Assembly: GCA_015065935.1 (NCBI GenBank)
Contig: SVPI01000003.1
Coordinates: forward strand, 30,563 to 94,562
From: Oscillospiraceae bacterium
GTDB lineage: Bacteria; Bacillota; Clostridia; Oscillospirales; Acutalibacteraceae
Direction of reading: 5' to 3'
Length of the DNA stretch: 64,000 nt
Position 1 is the first letter of the stretch, and every line of letters begins with the position of its first letter. Made by a program: the position numbers and the translations under genes. Below the pieces are notes generated by a model, which did not search any database, was not told the origin of the DNA, and saw only the letters and a program-made list of their open reading frames with translations. Shown in pieces: positions 613-49,076 of this stretch.

Positions 613-3069
613 TTGAAAAAGGATAAACTTTATCTTGTAGGCAACGCTCATTTAGACCCTGTTTGGCAGTGGCGCTGGCAGGAGGGAAGTATGGAGGCAA
701 AGGCCACCATTCGTTCGGCGCTTGATAGAATGAAGGAGTTCCCCGAATTTAGGTTTGTTTGCTCCTCTGCTTCGGTTTATAAATGGATAGAGGAATTCGC
801 CCCCGAAATGTTTGAAGAGGTAAGAGAGCGCATAAACGAGGGCAGATTTATAATTGTGGGCGGTTGGTTTGTTCAGCCCGATTGCAATATGCCCTCAGGC
901 GAGGCCTTTGCAAGACAAAGCCTTTATTCCCAGCGCTATTTTAAAGAAAACTTTGGCAAAACGGCAACGGTGGGTTATAATGTGGACAGCTTTGGCCACT
1001 GCGCAACCCTTCCGAAAATTTTAAAGAAAAGCGGAATGAATAGTTATATTTTTATGCGCCCCTCTCCGAAAGAAAAGAATATGGAAAGCGATGTTTTCGG
1101 TTGGATTTCCGATGACGGCTCAAAGGTTACAACATATAGAATTTTAGACCCCTATTGCGCCCAATTTGAAAATGTAGAGGCTTTAGAAGAGCGTGTTACT
1201 TATTTAGAGGAAAATTCTAAAGCCGATTTTAGCGCGCTTCCTCTTTTTTATGGCGTAGGCAACCACGGCGGCGGGCCGACCATAAGACATCTTGAGGTTT
1301 TGCGGGAATATGCGAAAAAACACCCCGAAAAGGAAATGATTTATTCCGATATATCAGATTTTTTTGAGGATATTTCTAAAGAAAACATTCCTCAGTATCA
1401 GGGAGATTTACAGCATCACGCCAGCGGCTGTTATTCGGCGGTGGGCAAAATTAAAAACGATGTTCGCCGTGCCGAAACAAGCCTTGTTGCCGCCGAAAGC
1501 TATAACGCCCTTGCGGCAAAGCTCTGCGGTAAGAAATATAAAAACGCCTCGTTTAAAGAGGGCTTTGAGAATGTGTGCTTTTGCCATTTTCACGATAGCC
1601 TTGATGGCTGCTCTATAAAAGAGGTTTATGATGATGCCGCTGATATGCTGGGCTTCGCTAAACACATTGCCGCAGTTGAGGAAAATAACGCTTTGCAGGC
1701 AATTTCCTGGAAAATAAACACAAAAGATAATACTTTGGGTCAGCCCGTTGTTGTTTTCAACCCCCATCCCTTTGATGCCGAGCAAATCGTTCAAATTAAT
1801 GGTCAGTTCAATGTGGTTAAGGACTCTGATGGAAACATTGTGCCTTCACAGCTGGTTTATTCCACCGTTAATGAGTGCTATAACCGCAAGGACACCATTT
1901 TCAGCGCAAGGGTTAAGGCGCTGGGTTATTCGGTTTATTATATAAGCGATGGCTTTACAGTAACCTGGAATAATCGCGCCGAGGAACCAAAGAGTGAAAA
2001 CAGTACCGTTTGCGCCTTTTTACCAAACAGCCTTGAAAGCGCTAATAATCACGACTGTGTTACCCTGGAAAATGAACTTTTAACGGTTAAATTTGAGCGC
2101 TATAGCGGTTATATTACCGAGATTTACGATAAGGAAAATGAGAAAAATCTTATAACTGACCGTGCCGCAGTGCCTATTGTTATTGATGAATATTATCACG
2201 ATGCCTGGAGCCACGATAAAAACTTTTTTACCGATGAAATGGCACGCTTTTCCGATGCTAAGGTAACGGTGCTTGAAAGCGGCCCTATAAGGGCAACCGT
2301 AAAGGTGGAAAGCCGTTATAATGGCTCTACCTTAACGCAGTATTTTTCCCTTGCTTCGGGCGGCAAAAAGTTAGTGGTAAGAGCCTATGTTAACTGGCAG
2401 GAGAAGCATAAAATGCTTAAAATAAAGTGGCCTATGGCGGTAGAAAATCCAAAAGCCTACTATGAAATTCCCTTTGGAATTATAGAGCGCCCTGCCGATG
2501 GCGAGGAGGAGCCTGGCATTAACTGGACTGCAGTTAAAGGCACAAACGGCGGCTTTGCTCTTGTAAATAATAACACCTACAGTTCAAGTGTTAAGGATGG
2601 TACGATTTATCACACCGTTGTTCGCAGCCCCATTTATGGCGACCACGGTGGACCGAGAACTGAGGAGAGCGATTTTTCGGGCCAGGGCAGATTTGATTTC
2701 AGCTATGAAATTATGCCTATAGGTGATAACTGGTCCTCGGTTATAAAGGAAGGAAAGCTTTTAAATAAGGGCTTTACCAATATAATGGACACCTGGCACG
2801 ATGGCGTTTTAGACTGCAAGCCTTATTCGGCAATGAGCACCGATTGCGAAAACATTTTTGTAAGTGCGGTTAAACGCAGCGAGGATAACACAGGCCTTAT
2901 CCTTCGCGTTTATGAGGCCGAGGGCAAGGAAACCAAATTTACTGTAAGCGGCGATTTGTTGCCCCTGCCGATTTGTGATACAATCACTCCCTGGTCGGTT
3001 GAAACCTATTATCTGAGTGACGGCGCCAAGAATTGGCAAAAGGTACTGTTTACCGAATATGCAGAATAA
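613..3069 (+). CDS. GH38 alpha-mannosidase
   Basis: 818 aa. The N-terminal GNAHLDPVWQWRW motif, the HFHD motif and the overall length fit class II (GH38) alpha-mannosidases. TTG start lies about 8 nt after AGGAGG. Confidence 0.85.
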   Translation: MKKDKLYLVGNAHLDPVWQWRWQEGSMEAKATIRSALDRMKEFPEFRFVCSSASVYKWIEEFAPEMFEEVRERINEGRFIIVGGWFVQPDCNMPSGEAFARQSLYSQRYFKENFGKTATVGYNVDSFGHCATLPKILKKSGMNSYIFMRPSPKEKNMESDVFGWISDDGSKVTTYRILDPYCAQFENVEALEERVTYLEENSKADFSALPLFYGVGNHGGGPTIRHLEVLREYAKKHPEKEMIYSDISDFFEDISKENIPQYQGDLQHHASGCYSAVGKIKNDVRRAETSLVAAESYNALAAKLCGKKYKNASFKEGFENVCFCHFHDSLDGCSIKEVYDDAADMLGFAKHIAAVEENNALQAISWKINTKDNTLGQPVVVFNPHPFDAEQIVQINGQFNVVKDSDGNIVPSQLVYSTVNECYNRKDTIFSARVKALGYSVYYISDGFTVTWNNRAEEPKSENSTVCAFLPNSLESANNHDCVTLENELLTVKFERYSGYITEIYDKENEKNLITDRAAVPIVIDEYYHDAWSHDKNFFTDEMARFSDAKVTVLESGPIRATVKVESRYNGSTLTQYFSLASGGKKLVVRAYVNWQEKHKMLKIKWPMAVENPKAYYEIPFGIIERPADGEEEPGINWTAVKGTNGGFALVNNNTYSSSVKDGTIYHTVVRSPIYGDHGGPRTEESDFSGQGRFDFSYEIMPIGDNWSSVIKEGKLLNKGFTNIMDTWHDGVLDCKPYSAMSTDCENIFVSAVKRSEDNTGLILRVYEAEGKETKFTVSGDLLPLPICDTITPWSVETYYLSDGAKNWQKVLFTEYAE

Positions 3070-32922: not shown

Positions 32923-33550
32923 ACTTATTTACGAGAAAAAAGACCGAATGCGTTTTGTTTCTCACCTTGATATGACTCGTTTTATGTCCCGAATGATTCA
33001 AAAATCAAAAATTCCTGTTTGGTATACCGAGGGCTTTAACAAGCACATTTATGTAACCTTCGCCCTGCCGCTTTCTTTAGGCTTTGAAAGCAATTATGAG
33101 GTTATGGATTTCCGTTTTGATGATGATAATTATCCATTATCTTTAGCTTTGCAGGCGCTTAAAGGCGTTTTCCCGCCCTACATAAGGATTGTCGATTTAA
33201 TTGAGCCCCAAATGAAAGCAGGGGAGATAGCCTTTGCGGATTTTGAAATAACCTTCGATACTTCCGATAAGGGATTTGAGAAGAAACTTGAAGACTTTTT
33301 GAACCTAGCGGAAATCAAGGTTTCCAAAAAAAGCAAAAAGGGCGCAATATCCGAAGTGGATATTGCACCCAAAATTAAGGCATTTTCCATAACCCAAGGG
33401 GAAAACACGGTTTTAAAAATAACCCTTCCTGCAGGGGGTAAGGATAATGTTAATCCCCAGCTTGTTTTATCGGCAATGGGGGAGGCCCTTCCCGAGTACA
33501 AAATTTGTCGCGGCAAGCTTTATAATGAGAAAATGGAAGTTTTCAAATAA
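32909..33550 (+). CDS. TIGR03936/DUF2344-family radical-SAM-associated protein
   Basis: MRFVSHLDMTRFMSRMIQKSKIPVWYTEGFNKH at the N-terminus is typical of the family. ATG at 32909 follows AGAGGG and overlaps the upstream gene. Confidence 0.75.
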   Translation: MKNVRLIYEKKDRMRFVSHLDMTRFMSRMIQKSKIPVWYTEGFNKHIYVTFALPLSLGFESNYEVMDFRFDDDNYPLSLALQALKGVFPPYIRIVDLIEPQMKAGEIAFADFEITFDTSDKGFEKKLEDFLNLAEIKVSKKSKKGAISEVDIAPKIKAFSITQGENTVLKITLPAGGKDNVNPQLVLSAMGEALPEYKICRGKLYNEKMEVFK

Positions 33551-34574
33551 CAATAATGTTTGTGTCCCACGCAGGGAGATAGGTGTGGTGGCGCATAAAA
33601 ATTTTATAGGTTGGGCACAGCGTGTGGATTTTTAAGGGAATTTCAAAAATATCCTCACTCCTGTGATAAACCGCAATGTGCATTTTCGGTTTTAAAGCGG
33701 AAACGGTGCCTTTGCCACCATCAAGAACAGCTGATTCAGCACCCTCGACGTCGATTTTAATAAACGTCGGGGGATTTTTCTTACTTAAAGCATCAATTGT
33801 AAAGGTGTTAATTTGGGTGTTTCCCACACCAAGGTTTACCCCGCGACCGTGCTGTGTAGAAACGGTTGCTTTTCCGCAAAATTCACCTGCCGCGCCGTTA
33901 ATGCAAAGTATATTTTTTAGAGAGCTTGTGTTTTCACACAGCTTTCTAAAATTCCTGCTGTCGGGCTCAAGGGCCGTAATGGCGGAATAGCCATTTACAT
34001 TTTGGGTAAACTCAATAACCGTGTCCCCATTATATGCGCCAAGGTCAAGGAAGCTTTCATTATTCTTTAAATTCAGTAGGGAAAAGACCTCGCTCCTTGG
34101 TGATTCAATCTCAAATAGGTAGTTTGGGTTTCCTGTGATTTTAAAAAGTACTGTATTTTCGAAAACCTTTTTTGAAGGCTCATCACTTAAAAGGGAGTGT
34201 GTTGCTCTAATTTTTTTGGCATTTTGCCTTGCAAAGGCAAGGTCAAAGACTGTGTTACCGTAAACCGGAACGTCGGCAACAAAAACGGTGTGCTTTTGCA
34301 TTAAACGCTTTACGTTGTCAATAACCTCGCTCCTGCTTGAGCCAAAGCACATAACAACGACCATTTCAGGGTATCTTTCGGCAAGCTCACTGTAGGAGGA
34401 AACGGTAAAGCCTCTGAATATTTTGCCTTTTTTAAAGCCATCACTTGCAAAAATTCCGCTTATTTTTGTTCCATCGGCATTTAAACGGTCAATAACCTTA
34501 TCGGCACCGTTGCCGGTTCCATAAAGAACAATGGGCTTTTTGCAGTTTTTAAGATAACTCCATAAATCGGTCAA
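33543..34574 (-). CDS. FkbM-family SAM-dependent methyltransferase with N-terminal Rossmann-like extension
   Basis: FLDLGAYNGDT (SAM motif I-like) and FIKIDVEGAE (FkbM signature). TTG start at 34574 lies 7 nt after GAGGTGA. The 3' end overlaps the convergent gene by 8 nt. Confidence 0.8.
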   Translation of the reverse strand: MTDLWSYLKNCKKPIVLYGTGNGADKVIDRLNADGTKISGIFASDGFKKGKIFRGFTVSSYSELAERYPEMVVVMCFGSSRSEVIDNVKRLMQKHTVFVADVPVYGNTVFDLAFARQNAKKIRATHSLLSDEPSKKVFENTVLFKITGNPNYLFEIESPRSEVFSLLNLKNNESFLDLGAYNGDTVIEFTQNVNGYSAITALEPDSRNFRKLCENTSSLKNILCINGAAGEFCGKATVSTQHGRGVNLGVGNTQINTFTIDALSKKNPPTFIKIDVEGAESAVLDGGKGTVSALKPKMHIAVYHRSEDIFEIPLKIHTLCPTYKIFMRHHTYLPAWDTNIIVI

Positions 34575-34615
34575 ATGGGTTCACCTCACTTTAAGTTGGT
34601 TCGACTCTCGCCAAC

Positions 34616-34892
34616 TTAAGCAAACACGAATAATCCGAACCTGATTTTAAAGGCTCAATTTTTGTCTTTGCATTGTTAAAATACTCGTTAATCCGTCAGG
34701 ATTAACTGCGTTTTGTGCCTCGCACAGCCAAAAATTCAACTCTTTAAAATTCTGCGACCTAAAACGGGCAGAATTTTGAGTGATTTTTGGTGCGGAAGAA
34801 TCCGTCAGGCTAACGCCTACGGGTGATGACAAACCGAAAAGAGCCGAAAGAATGCCGTTTTAGGCAGGTTCGGATTATTCGTGTTTGCTTAA
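34616..34892. other. 277-bp non-coding element bounded by perfect 28-bp inverted repeats (MITE-like element or large structured leader RNA)
   Basis: 34616-34643 (ttaagcaaacacgaataatccgaacctg) is the exact reverse complement of 34865-34892. The interior holds several hairpins and a 10-nt loop-to-flank complement. No ORF with an RBS. It begins at the predicted transcription start of the fkbM-like gene. Confidence 0.6.
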
Positions 34893-34895
34893 AAT

Positions 34896-34923
34896 ATTTT
34901 AACATATTATAAACAATTTGCAA
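34896..34923 (-). promoter_or_regulatory. Sigma-A type promoter reading into the element and the fkbM-like gene
   Basis: The minus strand reads TTGCAA, a 16-nt spacer, then an extended -10 TGTTAAAAT. The predicted start falls at about 34889-34892, which is the first bases of the inverted repeat. Confidence 0.55.
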
Positions 34924-34930
34924 AGGGTAA

Positions 34931-34959
34931 TTGATATTTTTGTGAACTTGGAGTATAAT
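34931..34959 (+). promoter_or_regulatory. Sigma-A type promoter of pcrA
   Basis: TTGATA, a 17-nt spacer, then TATAAT, 27 nt before the pcrA ATG. It is back-to-back with the minus-strand promoter, the two -35 boxes being 7 nt apart. Confidence 0.6.
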
Positions 34960-34986
34960 TGATATATTATTAGTAGGAGAGTACAA

Positions 34987-37362
34987 ATGACCGACCTTGA
35001 GTTTCTGAATTTGCGAAAAAAGGTCATACGGAAAGATTTTTCTCGTATGAATGATATGCAGTTTTTGGCCGTTACTAAAACAGACGGTCCTGTTCTTGTT
35101 TTGGCCGGGGCAGGAAGCGGCAAAACCACCGTGCTTGTTAATAGAATTGCCTGCCTTGTAAAGTATGGCAATGCCTATAACAGCACCGATGTTCCCTTTT
35201 TTTCGGAAAGTGATGTTGAGCAGGCAGAGGCTTTTATTAAAAACGATGAACCCATAGGTGACATGTACGCCTTTAGTGAAAACCCTGCAAAGCCCTGGGA
35301 AATTCTTGCCATTACCTTTACAAATAAAGCGGCAGGGGAACTCAAAGAGAGAATTAGCCTTCGCCTAGGAGATACGGCAAAGGATATTTGGGCAGGTACC
35401 TTCCACAGTGTGTGCGGAAAAATTTTGCGCCGCTTTGCCGATAGAATAGGCTATACTTCGCATTTTACAATTTATGATACCGATGACCAAAAGAAAATAA
35501 TGAAGGAGCTAATGAAGCAGTGCCGTGTGGATGAAAAGTTTATTCCTGTTAAAACGGTACTTTCCCACATTTCCTCCGCAAAGGACAAGCTGATTTCTCC
35601 TGAGGAATTTGCAGCCACCGTGGGCTCCGATTTACGCCTTCGCTCTATTGCCACGCTTTATGAGGCTTATAACAAAAACCTTCGCGATAACAATGCGATG
35701 GATTTTGATGATATGATTGTAAACACCGTGAAGCTCTTTAAAGAGAATGAGGATGTTCTTGATTACTATTCAAGAAAATTCCGTTACATAATGGTGGATG
35801 AGTATCAGGATACAAACCACGCGCAGTATATGCTTGTTAAACTGCTATCTACGGTGCACGGCAACATTTGCGTTGTGGGTGATGATGACCAAAGTATTTA
35901 CAAATTCCGCGGTGCTACCATTGAAAATATTTTAAGCTTTGAAAAGCATTATAAAAACGCTACGGTAATCCGTCTTGAGCAAAACTATCGCTCCACCTCA
36001 AATATTCTTGATGCCGCCAATGCCGTTATTAAAAATAACGCAGGCCGAAAGGGCAAAAACCTTTGGACAAATAGCGGCGAGGGTGAAAAAATCACGGTTA
36101 ACTACTCAGAGGATGAGCAGTCAGAAGCGCATTATGTTGCCAACGGAATTTTAACACGTGTAAGTCAAAACGGTAAATTTGGAGATAACGCCATTCTTTA
36201 CCGAATGAATGCACAGTCCAGAGCGTTTGAAAATATTTTTGCAAGAAGCGGTATTCCTTACCGCATCATTGGCGGTCTTAAGTTCTATGACCGCAAGGAA
36301 ATTAAAGATGTTTTGGCTTACCTAAATGTTATAAACAACCCTGCCGATGATTTGCGCCTGAAAAGAATTGTAAACGAGCCAAAACGCGCAATTGGCGACA
36401 CAACGGTGCAAAATGCCGAGCTTATTGCTATGCAGACAGGTAATACTCTATTTAACATTTTCAAAAATGCCGATGAGTACGCTCAGCTTTCCCGAAGCGC
36501 CGCAAAGCTTATGAACTTTGCGAATATGATTGAGCAGCTGCGCGAAATTGCCGAAACCGAGCCCCTTGATAGGCTCCTTGAAGAGGTGCTGGAAAAAACA
36601 GGCTATCGTGCCGCACTGCAGCTTGCAGGCAGTGAGGAGCAGGAAAGGCTTGATAACATAGGCGAACTTGCCACAGGCATTATTCAGTATGTTGCCTCAA
36701 GTGATGAGCCCACCCTTTCGGGATACCTTGAGGATATTGCCCTTATAACCGACCTTGATAATTTTGATTCCTCCCTTGATGCCGTTGTTATGATGACGGT
36801 GCATTCGGCAAAGGGTCTTGAATTTAATAATGTTTACATTGTTGGAATGGAGGAGGGAATTTTCCCCGGTAATCAGTCCATTTTCGGCGGTCCCGATGAA
36901 ATTGAGGAGGAACGCCGCCTTGCCTATGTTGCCATAACAAGGGCAAAAAAGGAGCTTACCGTTTCAACCGCCTATACGAGAATGATGTTCGGAATGACAA
37001 ATCGCAACCTACCCTCCCGCTTTTTAAAGGAAATTCCCGAGGAGCTTTGTGTTATTACAGGCACAAGGGCTTTCACCCCCACACAAAGGGCATCATCCTT
37101 TGGCGAGGAGTATGAGGCTTTTGGCAGGCCTCAAAGAGAGCGTTCTACACAGTCCTTTAAATCCTCCTTTGCACCTTCCCCCGCAAGCAAAAGTACAGAG
37201 TGTGCATTCACTGTGGGTCAACAGGTTAAGCACTCGGTGTTTGGCGTGGGAATGGTAATAAAGGCGGTGCCTATGGCAGGGGATACCATGCTGGAAATTG
37301 CATTTGACAGTGTTGGAACAAAGAAGCTTATGGCAAATTTCGCAAAGCTCACTGTAATTTAA
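34987..37362 (+). CDS. pcrA: ATP-dependent DNA helicase PcrA (UvrD family)
   Basis: AGAGSGKTTVL Walker A, MVDEYQDTN, VGDDDQSIYKFRGA, QNYRST and VHSAKGLEF motifs. Confidence 0.95.
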   Translation: MTDLEFLNLRKKVIRKDFSRMNDMQFLAVTKTDGPVLVLAGAGSGKTTVLVNRIACLVKYGNAYNSTDVPFFSESDVEQAEAFIKNDEPIGDMYAFSENPAKPWEILAITFTNKAAGELKERISLRLGDTAKDIWAGTFHSVCGKILRRFADRIGYTSHFTIYDTDDQKKIMKELMKQCRVDEKFIPVKTVLSHISSAKDKLISPEEFAATVGSDLRLRSIATLYEAYNKNLRDNNAMDFDDMIVNTVKLFKENEDVLDYYSRKFRYIMVDEYQDTNHAQYMLVKLLSTVHGNICVVGDDDQSIYKFRGATIENILSFEKHYKNATVIRLEQNYRSTSNILDAANAVIKNNAGRKGKNLWTNSGEGEKITVNYSEDEQSEAHYVANGILTRVSQNGKFGDNAILYRMNAQSRAFENIFARSGIPYRIIGGLKFYDRKEIKDVLAYLNVINNPADDLRLKRIVNEPKRAIGDTTVQNAELIAMQTGNTLFNIFKNADEYAQLSRSAAKLMNFANMIEQLREIAETEPLDRLLEEVLEKTGYRAALQLAGSEEQERLDNIGELATGIIQYVASSDEPTLSGYLEDIALITDLDNFDSSLDAVVMMTVHSAKGLEFNNVYIVGMEEGIFPGNQSIFGGPDEIEEERRLAYVAITRAKKELTVSTAYTRMMFGMTNRNLPSRFLKEIPEELCVITGTRAFTPTQRASSFGEEYEAFGRPQRERSTQSFKSSFAPSPASKSTECAFTVGQQVKHSVFGVGMVIKAVPMAGDTMLEIAFDSVGTKKLMANFAKLTVI

Positions 37363-48164: not shown

Positions 48165-49076
48165 TTGATTTACGATTTAAACCATTTAAAAAGTGAGTTT
48201 AAAAAGGCAAACATAAATTTCCTCGAGAATGAGCCTATGCACCGCCACACAAGCTTTAAAATCGGCGGTGCGGCTGATGTTTTTGTAAACATTGGCAGTA
48301 CTGAGGAATTCACTAGAGTCTTTGACCTTTGCAAGGCGGAAAATGCCCCCATTACCATTCTCGGCAAGGGAAGCAATCTGCTGGTTTCCGATAAGGGCAT
48401 TGAGGGTGTTGTGATTTGCCTTGAAGATTTAAATAAAATGACCGTTTCCGGCGAAAAGATAACTGTAGGTGCAGGCGCAAACCTTGCCACCCTTTGCACA
48501 TTTGCCGCAAACGAGGGGCTATCGGGTCTTGAATTTGCCTTTGGAATTCCCGGCAGTGTGGGCGGCGCAGTTTTTATGAACGCAGGCGCCTACGGCGGTG
48601 AAATGAAGGATGTTCTCGAAAGCGTTACGGCGGTAAGCCGAAATGGTGAAATTTTCACCCTTTTCGGCAATGAACTTTGCCTTTCCTACAGAAGCAGTGC
48701 TTTTCAGAAAAACGGTGCCACCGTTTTAGAAGCGGTGTTTAAACTTAAAAAGGGAAGCACCGAGGAAATAAAGGCTTCAATGACCGAAATTATGAAGCGC
48801 CGAAAGGATAAGCAACCCCTTGAATTTCCCAGTGCAGGCAGTACCTTTAAGCGCCCCGAGGGTCACTTTGCAGGAACCCTTATTGAGCAGTGTGGGCTAA
48901 AAGGCTTTTCGGTTGGCGGTGCCCAGGTTAGCGTTAAGCACGCAGGCTTTGTTATAAACAAGGGCGGTGCTACCGCAAGCGATGTGCTTTGCCTTATTAA
49001 AAAGGTTCAGGAAACCGTTTTTCAGAAAACAGGTGTCACCCTTGAACCCGAAGTAATTTTTATTGGTAGGGAATAG
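48165..49076 (+). CDS. murB: UDP-N-acetylenolpyruvoylglucosamine reductase
   Basis: HTSFKIGGAAD, ILGKGSNLL, AGSTFKRP and SVKHAGFVIN motifs. I chose TTG at 48165, just after the glcK stop; the start is uncertain. Confidence 0.9.
   Translation: MIYDLNHLKSEFKKANINFLENEPMHRHTSFKIGGAADVFVNIGSTEEFTRVFDLCKAENAPITILGKGSNLLVSDKGIEGVVICLEDLNKMTVSGEKITVGAGANLATLCTFAANEGLSGLEFAFGIPGSVGGAVFMNAGAYGGEMKDVLESVTAVSRNGEIFTLFGNELCLSYRSSAFQKNGATVLEAVFKLKKGSTEEIKASMTEIMKRRKDKQPLEFPSAGSTFKRPEGHFAGTLIEQCGLKGFSVGGAQVSVKHAGFVINKGGATASDVLCLIKKVQETVFQKTGVTLEPEVIFIGRE

Follow-up and report, generated by a model that had tools for sequence, protein, structure and literature searches.

An inverted-repeat element lies between fkbM and pcrA

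We analyzed a stretch of 64,000 nucleotides from an Oscillospiraceae bacterium (contig SVPI01000003.1, positions 30,563 to 94,562; hereafter the window), in which a gene for an FkbM-domain methyltransferase (fkbM; 33543-34574, minus strand, with a Shine-Dalgarno (SD) sequence, GAGGTG, at 34580-34586) and a gene for PcrA/UvrD (pcrA; 34987-37362, plus strand) are divergently arranged. The spacer between them carries an element, its left end ~30 nt from the fkbM SD sequence, that is very probably a MITE (miniature inverted-repeat transposable element), a non-autonomous DNA transposon of 271 bp that has perfect 25-bp terminal repeats, encodes no protein, and now probably resides in the fkbM leader. 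We tested for terminal inverted repeats, a TA target-site duplication, small size without conserved coding, and many dispersed copies, and all of these features of a MITE were found.

The arms of the inverted repeat, 34616-34643 and 34865-34892, are exact reverse complements over 28 bp, as had been noticed in an earlier reading of the letters without database searches (the sequence-only reading), and their complementarity reaches 39 nt at 87%. The 28-mer has just two occurrences in the window, with 0 expected from 100 shuffles. The outermost T/A of this repeat belongs to the flank, and the complete unit is TA + 271 bp + TA (34617-34891). It consists of a left TA target-site copy (34617-34618), placed by comparison with an empty site (L156) and mirrored by a like duplication at two other filled/empty pairs; the MITE proper (34619-34889, non-coding, plus strand in the orientation of alignment A1), delimited by near-identical full copies at unrelated loci; and a right TA copy (34890-34891), placed by the filled/empty comparison. 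The left terminal inverted repeat, AGCAAACACGAATAATCCGAACCTG (25 bp; 34619-34643, plus strand), is almost invariant in 45 aligned copies, and the right one (34865-34889, minus strand) is its exact reverse complement.

The interior is divided into 2 domains. The left domain (34644-34753, minus strand) is closed by a helix of 34644-34664 with 34729-34750 and contains a covarying hairpin (34687-34694/34699-34706), and the right domain (34758-34864, plus strand) consists of helices 34758-34767/34855-34864 and 34774-34794/34830-34849 and a hairpin, 34797-34810/34815-34827. A 10-bp stem (34746-34755/34768-34777) and an 11-nt direct repeat, AATCCGTCAGG (34690-34700, second copy 34799-34809, plus strand), are also present. 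All of the internal hairpins and the direct repeat listed by the sequence-only reading could be found in the sequence, as could the pairing of 34758-34767 with 34855-34864; the direct repeat is not kept as a repeat in other subfamilies. The 277 nt fold with an energy of -120.3 kcal/mol as the plus strand and -114.7 kcal/mol as the minus strand (z ~ -11.7 compared to shuffles, both strands).

We searched Rfam 15 for a known RNA family, none of which had been recognized in the element by eye, and this lack was upheld at gathering score and at permissive thresholds. At gathering score, nothing in the window matched; a search of the element region (34400-35100) at E up to 10 returned four chance-level matches, the best with 17.8 bits against a cut-off of 51; and loci L127, L145, and L156, which include three more copies, returned none at E up to 1. 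The 61-aa open reading frame (ORF) present in the window copy is intact in just 20 of the 45 family members, its frame being broken by indels, and is therefore considered non-coding, as previously proposed.

Insertion is precise and duplicates a TA dinucleotide

In a relative whose FkbM is 94% identical (L156), the same pcrA-fkbM arrangement is found without the element, the spacer being 139 nt compared to 412 nt in the window (difference 273). The empty site reads GCCAACT-TA-AAATATT, and the window reads GCCAACT-TA-[AGCAAAC...GTTTGCT]-TA-AAATATT. The spacer of a second relative (L161; 77% identical) also lacks the element. A single TA was likewise seen in the empty site when L042 and L048 (filled) were compared to L144 (empty), and when another site, filled in L144, was compared to L067 (empty). 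These three independent filled/empty pairs demonstrate that insertion is precise and duplicates TA. The flanks of 47 full copies showed no duplication longer than TA; their consensus is (T)-TA-(A), and the target, (C)(T)-TA-(A)(G)(G), has weak palindromic symmetry. The structured element in the window is a transposon insertion of which a close relative keeps the ancestral empty allele, and a MITE with a TA duplication, one of the 2 interpretations offered by the sequence-only reading, is borne out by the empty orthologous spacer, by the TA duplicated at three independent sites, and by the many dispersed copies described below.

A consensus scan predicted a promoter for each gene at this locus. 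The predicted fkbM promoter (TTGCAA, 16 nt, TAAAAT, with TG upstream; 34896-34923, minus strand) is located immediately beyond the element's right end, and the predicted pcrA promoter (TTGATA, 17 nt, TATAAT; 34931-34959, plus strand) lies downstream of the element and is untouched by it. Both predicted sequences are unchanged in the empty allele of L156. The predicted fkbM -10 box precedes the insertion TA by ~8 nt, and a transcript starting ~7 nt past this box would begin at the first bases of the MITE. The fkbM leader would then be ~315 nt long and heavily folded, with all 271 nt of the element included, compared to ~45 nt without it. Since the predicted -10 box lies just outside the element, the element probably forms most of the fkbM 5′ leader in the window.

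This location between the predicted fkbM promoter and the ribosome-binding site, together with the very strong folding, would also suit a structured leader, noncoding RNA, or riboswitch-like element specific to fkbM, which was the second interpretation of the sequence-only reading. The same spacer is empty in the relatives with FkbM 94% and 77% identical, copies stand beside dozens of unrelated genes, and a match in Rfam is absent. The element is not tied to fkbM, so the locus-specific reading is not supported; it is refuted by the empty orthologous sites, and we assign it next to no probability. The part of that interpretation that did not stand is synteny with fkbM, whereas the element probably is the fkbM leader at this locus and compensatory changes are abundant across the family (see below).

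At three other loci, in which FkbM is 86-87% identical (L157, L159, and L160, about 2588-3000), a CmpB-like gene precedes fkbM in place of the divergent pcrA, indicating that the fkbM neighborhood was rearranged between close lineages.

The element belongs to a large dispersed family

To assess the distribution of the element, a 22-mer of the terminal repeat was scanned against contigs of one genome per species, all of them fragmented metagenome-assembled genomes (MAGs), such that loci and copy counts are lower bounds. The 22-mer was found at at least 119 loci in at least 48 species-level MAG assemblies, with up to 14 loci per assembly among the matches listed (MAG SVPZ01). The assembly labels among the matches listed are Acutalibacteraceae, Oscillospiraceae, Eubacteriales, Ruminococcus, Clostridia, and one Lachnospiraceae, and the hosts, where record titles give one, are goat, sheep, and water buffalo (gut). 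At least 47 full copies with unique, unrelated flanks (46 elsewhere and that of the window) have a TA-to-TA length of 274-278 bp. Identity to the window copy ranges from 78% to 99% in the interior, but the terminal 27 nt hardly vary among the 45 aligned copies. Full copies 98-99% identical to that of the window occur at unrelated loci of other genomes, and copies 97-99% identical were found in about nine species-level assemblies among the matches listed, which argues for recent activity or transfer. These results show that the MITE family has colonized the chromosomes of many uncultured Clostridia of the gut, above all Acutalibacteraceae and Oscillospiraceae. In at least 48 species of uncultured Clostridia from ruminant and other guts, it appears to be active or to have been so until recently.

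A search of metagenome contigs with a repeat-derived 20-mer yielded ten true copies with unrelated flanks (98.9%, 89.5%, and 83% identity where full length); the other matches were chance ones in a soil gene and the 3′ trailers of tRNA-Pro and tmRNA genes. Collections of plasmids, phages, and viruses contained no match to the element. No second copy was detected in the window by a pattern search with 3 mismatches, by blastn, or by nhmmer; a match of nhmmer at 48267-48364 to model positions 31-97 (E = 0.003) falls inside a 321-aa ORF and is probably due to chance. The BLASTN-type check proposed by the sequence-only reading thus finds an element that is multicopy and dispersed, not single-copy or fixed beside fkbM. 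The family appears to be undescribed, as neither Rfam nor annotated plasmids, phages, or viral contigs contained a match, in a study whose literature search was not aimed at prior descriptions.

The soil contigs (L009, L010, L012, L013, L015, L020, L023, L025, L026, L030, and L036) share the 20-mer AAACACGAATAATCCGAACC in an apparently conserved GC-rich gene. They were treated as unrelated to the element because no similarity extends beyond the 20-mer.

Five independent metagenome contigs encoding an identical FkbM and two encoding an identical PcrA (L001-L007) all end inside the element, three of the five FkbM contigs stopping at most 1 nt from the inner edge of the fkbM-side repeat, and many of the 22-mer loci fall within ~130 nt of a contig end. 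Mixed orientations of an inverton, in which a recombinase acting at the 28-bp repeats would flip the 221-bp interior and so make fkbM phase-variable, could give the same breakpoints in these three contigs. However, the inverted junction (flank, repeat, and flipped interior) had no matches in metagenome contigs, and every contig reaching the interior has the orientation of the window. The contig breaks are explained by a multicopy element with TA duplications and empty sites, and the inverton is effectively refuted, its probability being close to nil. The MITE family fragments the MAGs of these taxa, short-read assemblies breaking at the element because it is a multicopy repeat, often at the inner edge of the repeat.

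Shortened and altered derivatives were also found. A 166-bp form (L151 3507-3672) matches model positions 1-84 and 184-275 and could have arisen if the stretch separating the two AATCCGTCAGG direct repeats was lost. A 158-bp form (L094 4564-4721), a 57-bp mini form (L063 1370-1426), and half elements are also present. Left-only remnants of 76-79 nt at six loci (L041, L046, L078, L115, L116, and L136) all break off within the first hairpin's 5′ arm, inside or just past its TTAAT (CAAAT in two subfamily variants), and right-only remnants of 77-81 nt occur in L100 and L142. A 432-bp variant in MAG JAZPYP01 has the same terminal repeats around a different interior with extra hairpins (L069 2834-3265; L051 4244-4384; L089 466-606).

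The two-domain fold is preserved by compensatory substitutions

We used alignment A1, which comprises 45 copies that are related to one another, and a curated interior structure of 68 pairs to investigate whether the fold is conserved. Standard pairs filled 92.9% of the cells, compared to 87.5% in shuffles and 36-54% in slid controls. Double-sided changes were seen at 25 of the 68 pairs (15.8 ± 1.7 in shuffles, with 0 of 500 reaching 25; 6-12 in slid controls) and in 191 cells (53.5 in shuffles; 20-42 in slid controls). They are distributed over both domains, with 5 and 6 pairs in helices 1 and 3 of the left domain and 3, 3, and 8 pairs in helices 4-6 of the right domain. Long-range pairs covary as well; column pair 39-125 occurs in four Watson-Crick types (UA 15, AU 10, CG 6, and GC 6). 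These results demonstrate that a two-domain fold, closed by the helix of the terminal repeats, is preserved by compensatory substitutions across the family, with the caveat that palindromes can gain seemingly compensatory changes by templated (quasipalindrome) mutation.

Among the pairings listed by the sequence-only reading, covariation backs 34687-34706 and 34802-34822, and it also backs the helices that close each domain. The hairpins 34714-34726 and 34746-34777 and the long-range pairing 34725-34738/34781-34792 are conserved in sequence, with covariation no higher than in shuffles. That reading had further held that dispersed, TA-flanked copies devoid of compensatory substitutions would speak against a functional RNA; the copies are indeed dispersed and TA-flanked, yet compensatory changes are abundant. 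Taken together, the data describe a MITE with a constrained fold.

The 2 domains differ in the strand on which they fold best. Minus-strand RNA gives the more stable left domain in 39 of 45 copies (mean 5.1 kcal/mol), and plus-strand RNA gives the more stable right domain in all 45 (mean 9.8 kcal/mol). Wobble (G.U) intermediates follow the same pattern, favoring the minus strand in the left domain and the plus strand in the right domain, such that in each half the better-folding strand runs from the center to the terminus. The RNAalifold totals are about equal (-73.5 and -73.9 kcal/mol), the run on each strand selecting its own wobble pairs. Since the halves prefer opposite strands, one read-through RNA does not explain this pattern, and an attempt to identify a single functional strand from counts of G.U against A.C was rejected for the same reason.

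Two other lines of analysis were also discarded. The idea that the two halves are diverged inverted duplicates gained weak support (z = 2.0; 13 of 500 shuffles as high), and purifying selection could not be estimated from orthologous filled sites given that the genomes are too close (element 98.6%, flanks 97% identical).

Conserved, covarying hairpins kept in a strand-specific manner, with each half folding best on one particular strand, would be explained if an HUH enzyme moved the element as single-stranded DNA, in the way of REPIN/RAYT or IS200/IS605-derived palindromes, and the fact that a DDE transposase was not found is compatible with such movement. Against this, the terminal repeats are perfect over 25 bp and TA is duplicated at three sites, and to our knowledge IS200/IS605 and REPIN elements have neither perfect terminal inverted repeats nor a TA duplication. 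Its 271 bp and branched fold are also unlike REP units of 20-35 nt, and no RAYT, TnpA, or other HUH gene was present in the flanks examined. Movement by an HUH enzyme is therefore very unlikely.

Copies are retained preferentially in one orientation near ribosome-binding sites

To assess the position of the copies relative to genes, the flanks of both ends were inspected. An SD sequence followed by a start codon within 40 nt was found beside the left end in 30 flank clusters and beside the right end in 6 (binomial p = 7e-5), while stop codons adjoin both ends about equally. Many copies sit exactly at stop/SD junctions (TAAGGAG). In insertions at stop codons, the TA of TAA is the target and the first A of the element restores the stop, as seen at the rimP-nusA junction in L127. 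There, two copies in the same orientation (126-403 and 872-1148) bracket rimP, one directly upstream of the rimP SD sequence and the other past the rimP stop codon, ahead of the nusA SD sequence. The nusA-side insertion is common to a second MAG (L104 2741-3017), the element being 98.6% and the flanks 97% identical.

Since the ends are symmetric, the orientation bias has to reflect selection for some activity of the interior. Such an activity could be a weak outward promoter, predicted from an invariant minus-strand TAAAAT that immediately follows the left repeat on its inner side (columns 28-33), or orientation-dependent polarity. Either propagation of the element or its tolerance by the host would depend on structure and orientation. 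The unusually clear covariation and the orientation selection make the family a good natural system in which to study what constrains MITE structure.

These observations raise the possibility of a mobile cassette whose RNA acts in cis for the host, as an outward promoter, as an RNase III processing site or stabilizer at a 27-bp terminal helix, or as an insulator between cistrons. Such a role is compatible with MITE mobility and rivals the selfish reading solely in what the element does. It would accommodate the strong covariation in long-range and local helices, the 5:1 orientation bias at ribosome-binding sites, which is not expected from a transposase acting on symmetric ends, the precise residence at stop/SD junctions inside operons such as rimP-nusA, and the invariant minus-strand TAAAAT inside the left repeat. 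Precedents exist in the promoters of Correia elements and in the fold of bcr1, kept by compensatory changes [PMC3184786]. On the other hand, the putative outward promoter is weak (its -35 hexamer agrees with the consensus at ~3 of 6 positions), the domains prefer opposite strands, covariation could come from templated mutation or from constraints of transposition on master copies, and many copies are decayed. A cis-acting role is possible, and we propose it tentatively, as less probable than not.

The ends of the element resemble a tRNA 3′ end and its trailer

A T-loop-like sequence, GGTTCRANTC, lies in the flank exactly 24 nt before AAACACG in four independent copies (window, L127, L145, and L154), against 0.075 expected by chance. 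The motif, GGTTCGACTCTCGCCAAC and its variants, is placed just outside the MITE end (window 34591-34619; L127 107-125; L145 ~661-680; L154 3096-3120). In the window it coincides with a flanking 9-bp hairpin (TTAAGTTGG/CCAACTTAA, loop TTCGACTCTCG; 34591-34619) in the target DNA, outside the MITE. This flanking hairpin and motif are also found in the empty site of L156 and are absent from the more distant empty site of L161, and their presence in L156 indicates that the motif in the window belongs to the target. Neither ARAGORN nor Rfam made a call on the T-loop-like flank fragments.

Genuine tRNA-Pro and tmRNA genes show the same register, with CCA followed by AACACGAATAATCCGAACC and a terminator hairpin. 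This trailer was seen in tRNA-Pro genes (L011 10719-10860, L018, L032, L035, and L017) and in tmRNA genes (L016 530-990 and L033 788-1240). The 3′ arm of the tRNA/tmRNA terminator hairpin resembles the right repeat of the MITE, and the MITE end (A-GCA-AACACG...) and the tRNA end with its trailer (A-CCA-AACACG...) are one base apart. The MITE ends may derive from such a trailer and terminator, or such sites may be preferred targets. L154 (2935-3250) carries a tandem pair of ~160-nt units, in each of which a tRNA-3′-like module is fused to a MITE right half; the second unit has a diverged end, AGCCAAAGCAATTAAACTTGAACCAGCC, and L127 1-125 shares ~70 nt of the module. These hybrid units look like a related repeat family.

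Folding on the outward strands, the ends that resemble a tRNA 3′ end, and retention in one orientation at stop/SD junctions led us to consider a more specific proposal, namely that the family is a transposable, structure-constrained RNA or single-stranded-DNA module, either a mobile regulatory cassette of intercistronic regions and 5′ untranslated regions or an element whose transposition needs the folded strand. We regard this proposal as rather unlikely. If true, the family would be more than selfish DNA and the module would act, for example, as a promoter, processing site, or insulator.

Mobilization and comparison with known MITEs

A 2-bp TA duplication points to a DDE transposase of the IS630/Tc1-mariner type. 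An enzyme of this type, supplied in trans, would bind the terminal repeats, excise the element, and paste it into a TA site. Several points weigh against the MITE interpretation as a whole or against its details. An IS630/Tc1-mariner-type enzyme is proposed because of the TA duplication alone, and the fkbM promoter was placed by a consensus scan only. We found neither an autonomous element nor a transposase with matching ends, nor any pair of repeats 0.6-4 kb apart in ~1 Mb of fetched loci, and no transposase stood beside any repeat arm in these fragmented MAGs, in which a parent insertion sequence (IS) could have been missed. In addition, covariation and a strand-specific fold are not required by plain cut-and-paste transposition and hint at an RNA or single-stranded-DNA layer.

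Individual candidates for a parent IS were rejected. That in L149 lies inside a 659-aa gene, the solo arms in L060 and L103 adjoin housekeeping genes, and the half elements in L115 and L116 adjoin transporter genes.

As a kind, the element is ordinary, with precedents in Correia, bcr1, RUP, and ERIC, and it is part of none of the Correia, RUP, and bcr1 sequence families. Correia elements duplicate a TA target, are processed by RNase III, and are characterized by a repeat consensus peculiar to Neisseria and by an IHF site in their interior. These elements of Neisseria (CREE/NEMIS) are non-coding MITEs with ~26-bp terminal repeats and no known transposase, for which promoters were reported [PMC3184786]. 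As with the element described here, they are small and non-coding, often lie upstream of genes or between cistrons, and have transcribed repeats that form a long hairpin [PMC3184786]. In contrast, Correia elements measure ~104-157 bp compared to 271 bp here, their sequence is called unrelated, their host phylum differs from the Clostridia, and the branched two-domain interior with covariation belongs to the present element. The latter works like a Correia element and is not a member of that family, being set apart by size and host.

RUP, a second precedent and one of the IS630-linked MITEs, has TA insertion sites and terminal repeats, and its mobilization in trans by an IS630-family transposase was proposed. 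RUP is a MITE of Streptococcus pneumoniae [PMC3184786]. It differs from our element in having a candidate parent, IS630-Spn1, that shares RUP ends, whereas no parent was found here, and in its length (107 bp compared to 271 bp).

In the Bacillus cereus group, bcr1 is mobile and transcribed, with a cruciform-like RNA fold kept by compensatory changes [PMC3184786]. Both are mobile repeats of Firmicutes with a target duplication, a variable genomic distribution, and a fold kept in this manner. However, bcr1 is ~155 bp long with a 5-bp duplication, compared to 271 bp, a TA duplication, and much longer perfect terminal repeats in the present element, and the sequences are unrelated. The enterobacterial repeats of the ERIC/IRU and YPAL types are imperfect palindromes with TA at both termini that occupy transcribed intergenic sites and can alter mRNA structure [PMC3184786]. 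They are shorter and belong to another lineage, and the evidence for their recent mobility is weaker than the filled/empty polymorphism observed for the element of the fkbM-pcrA spacer.

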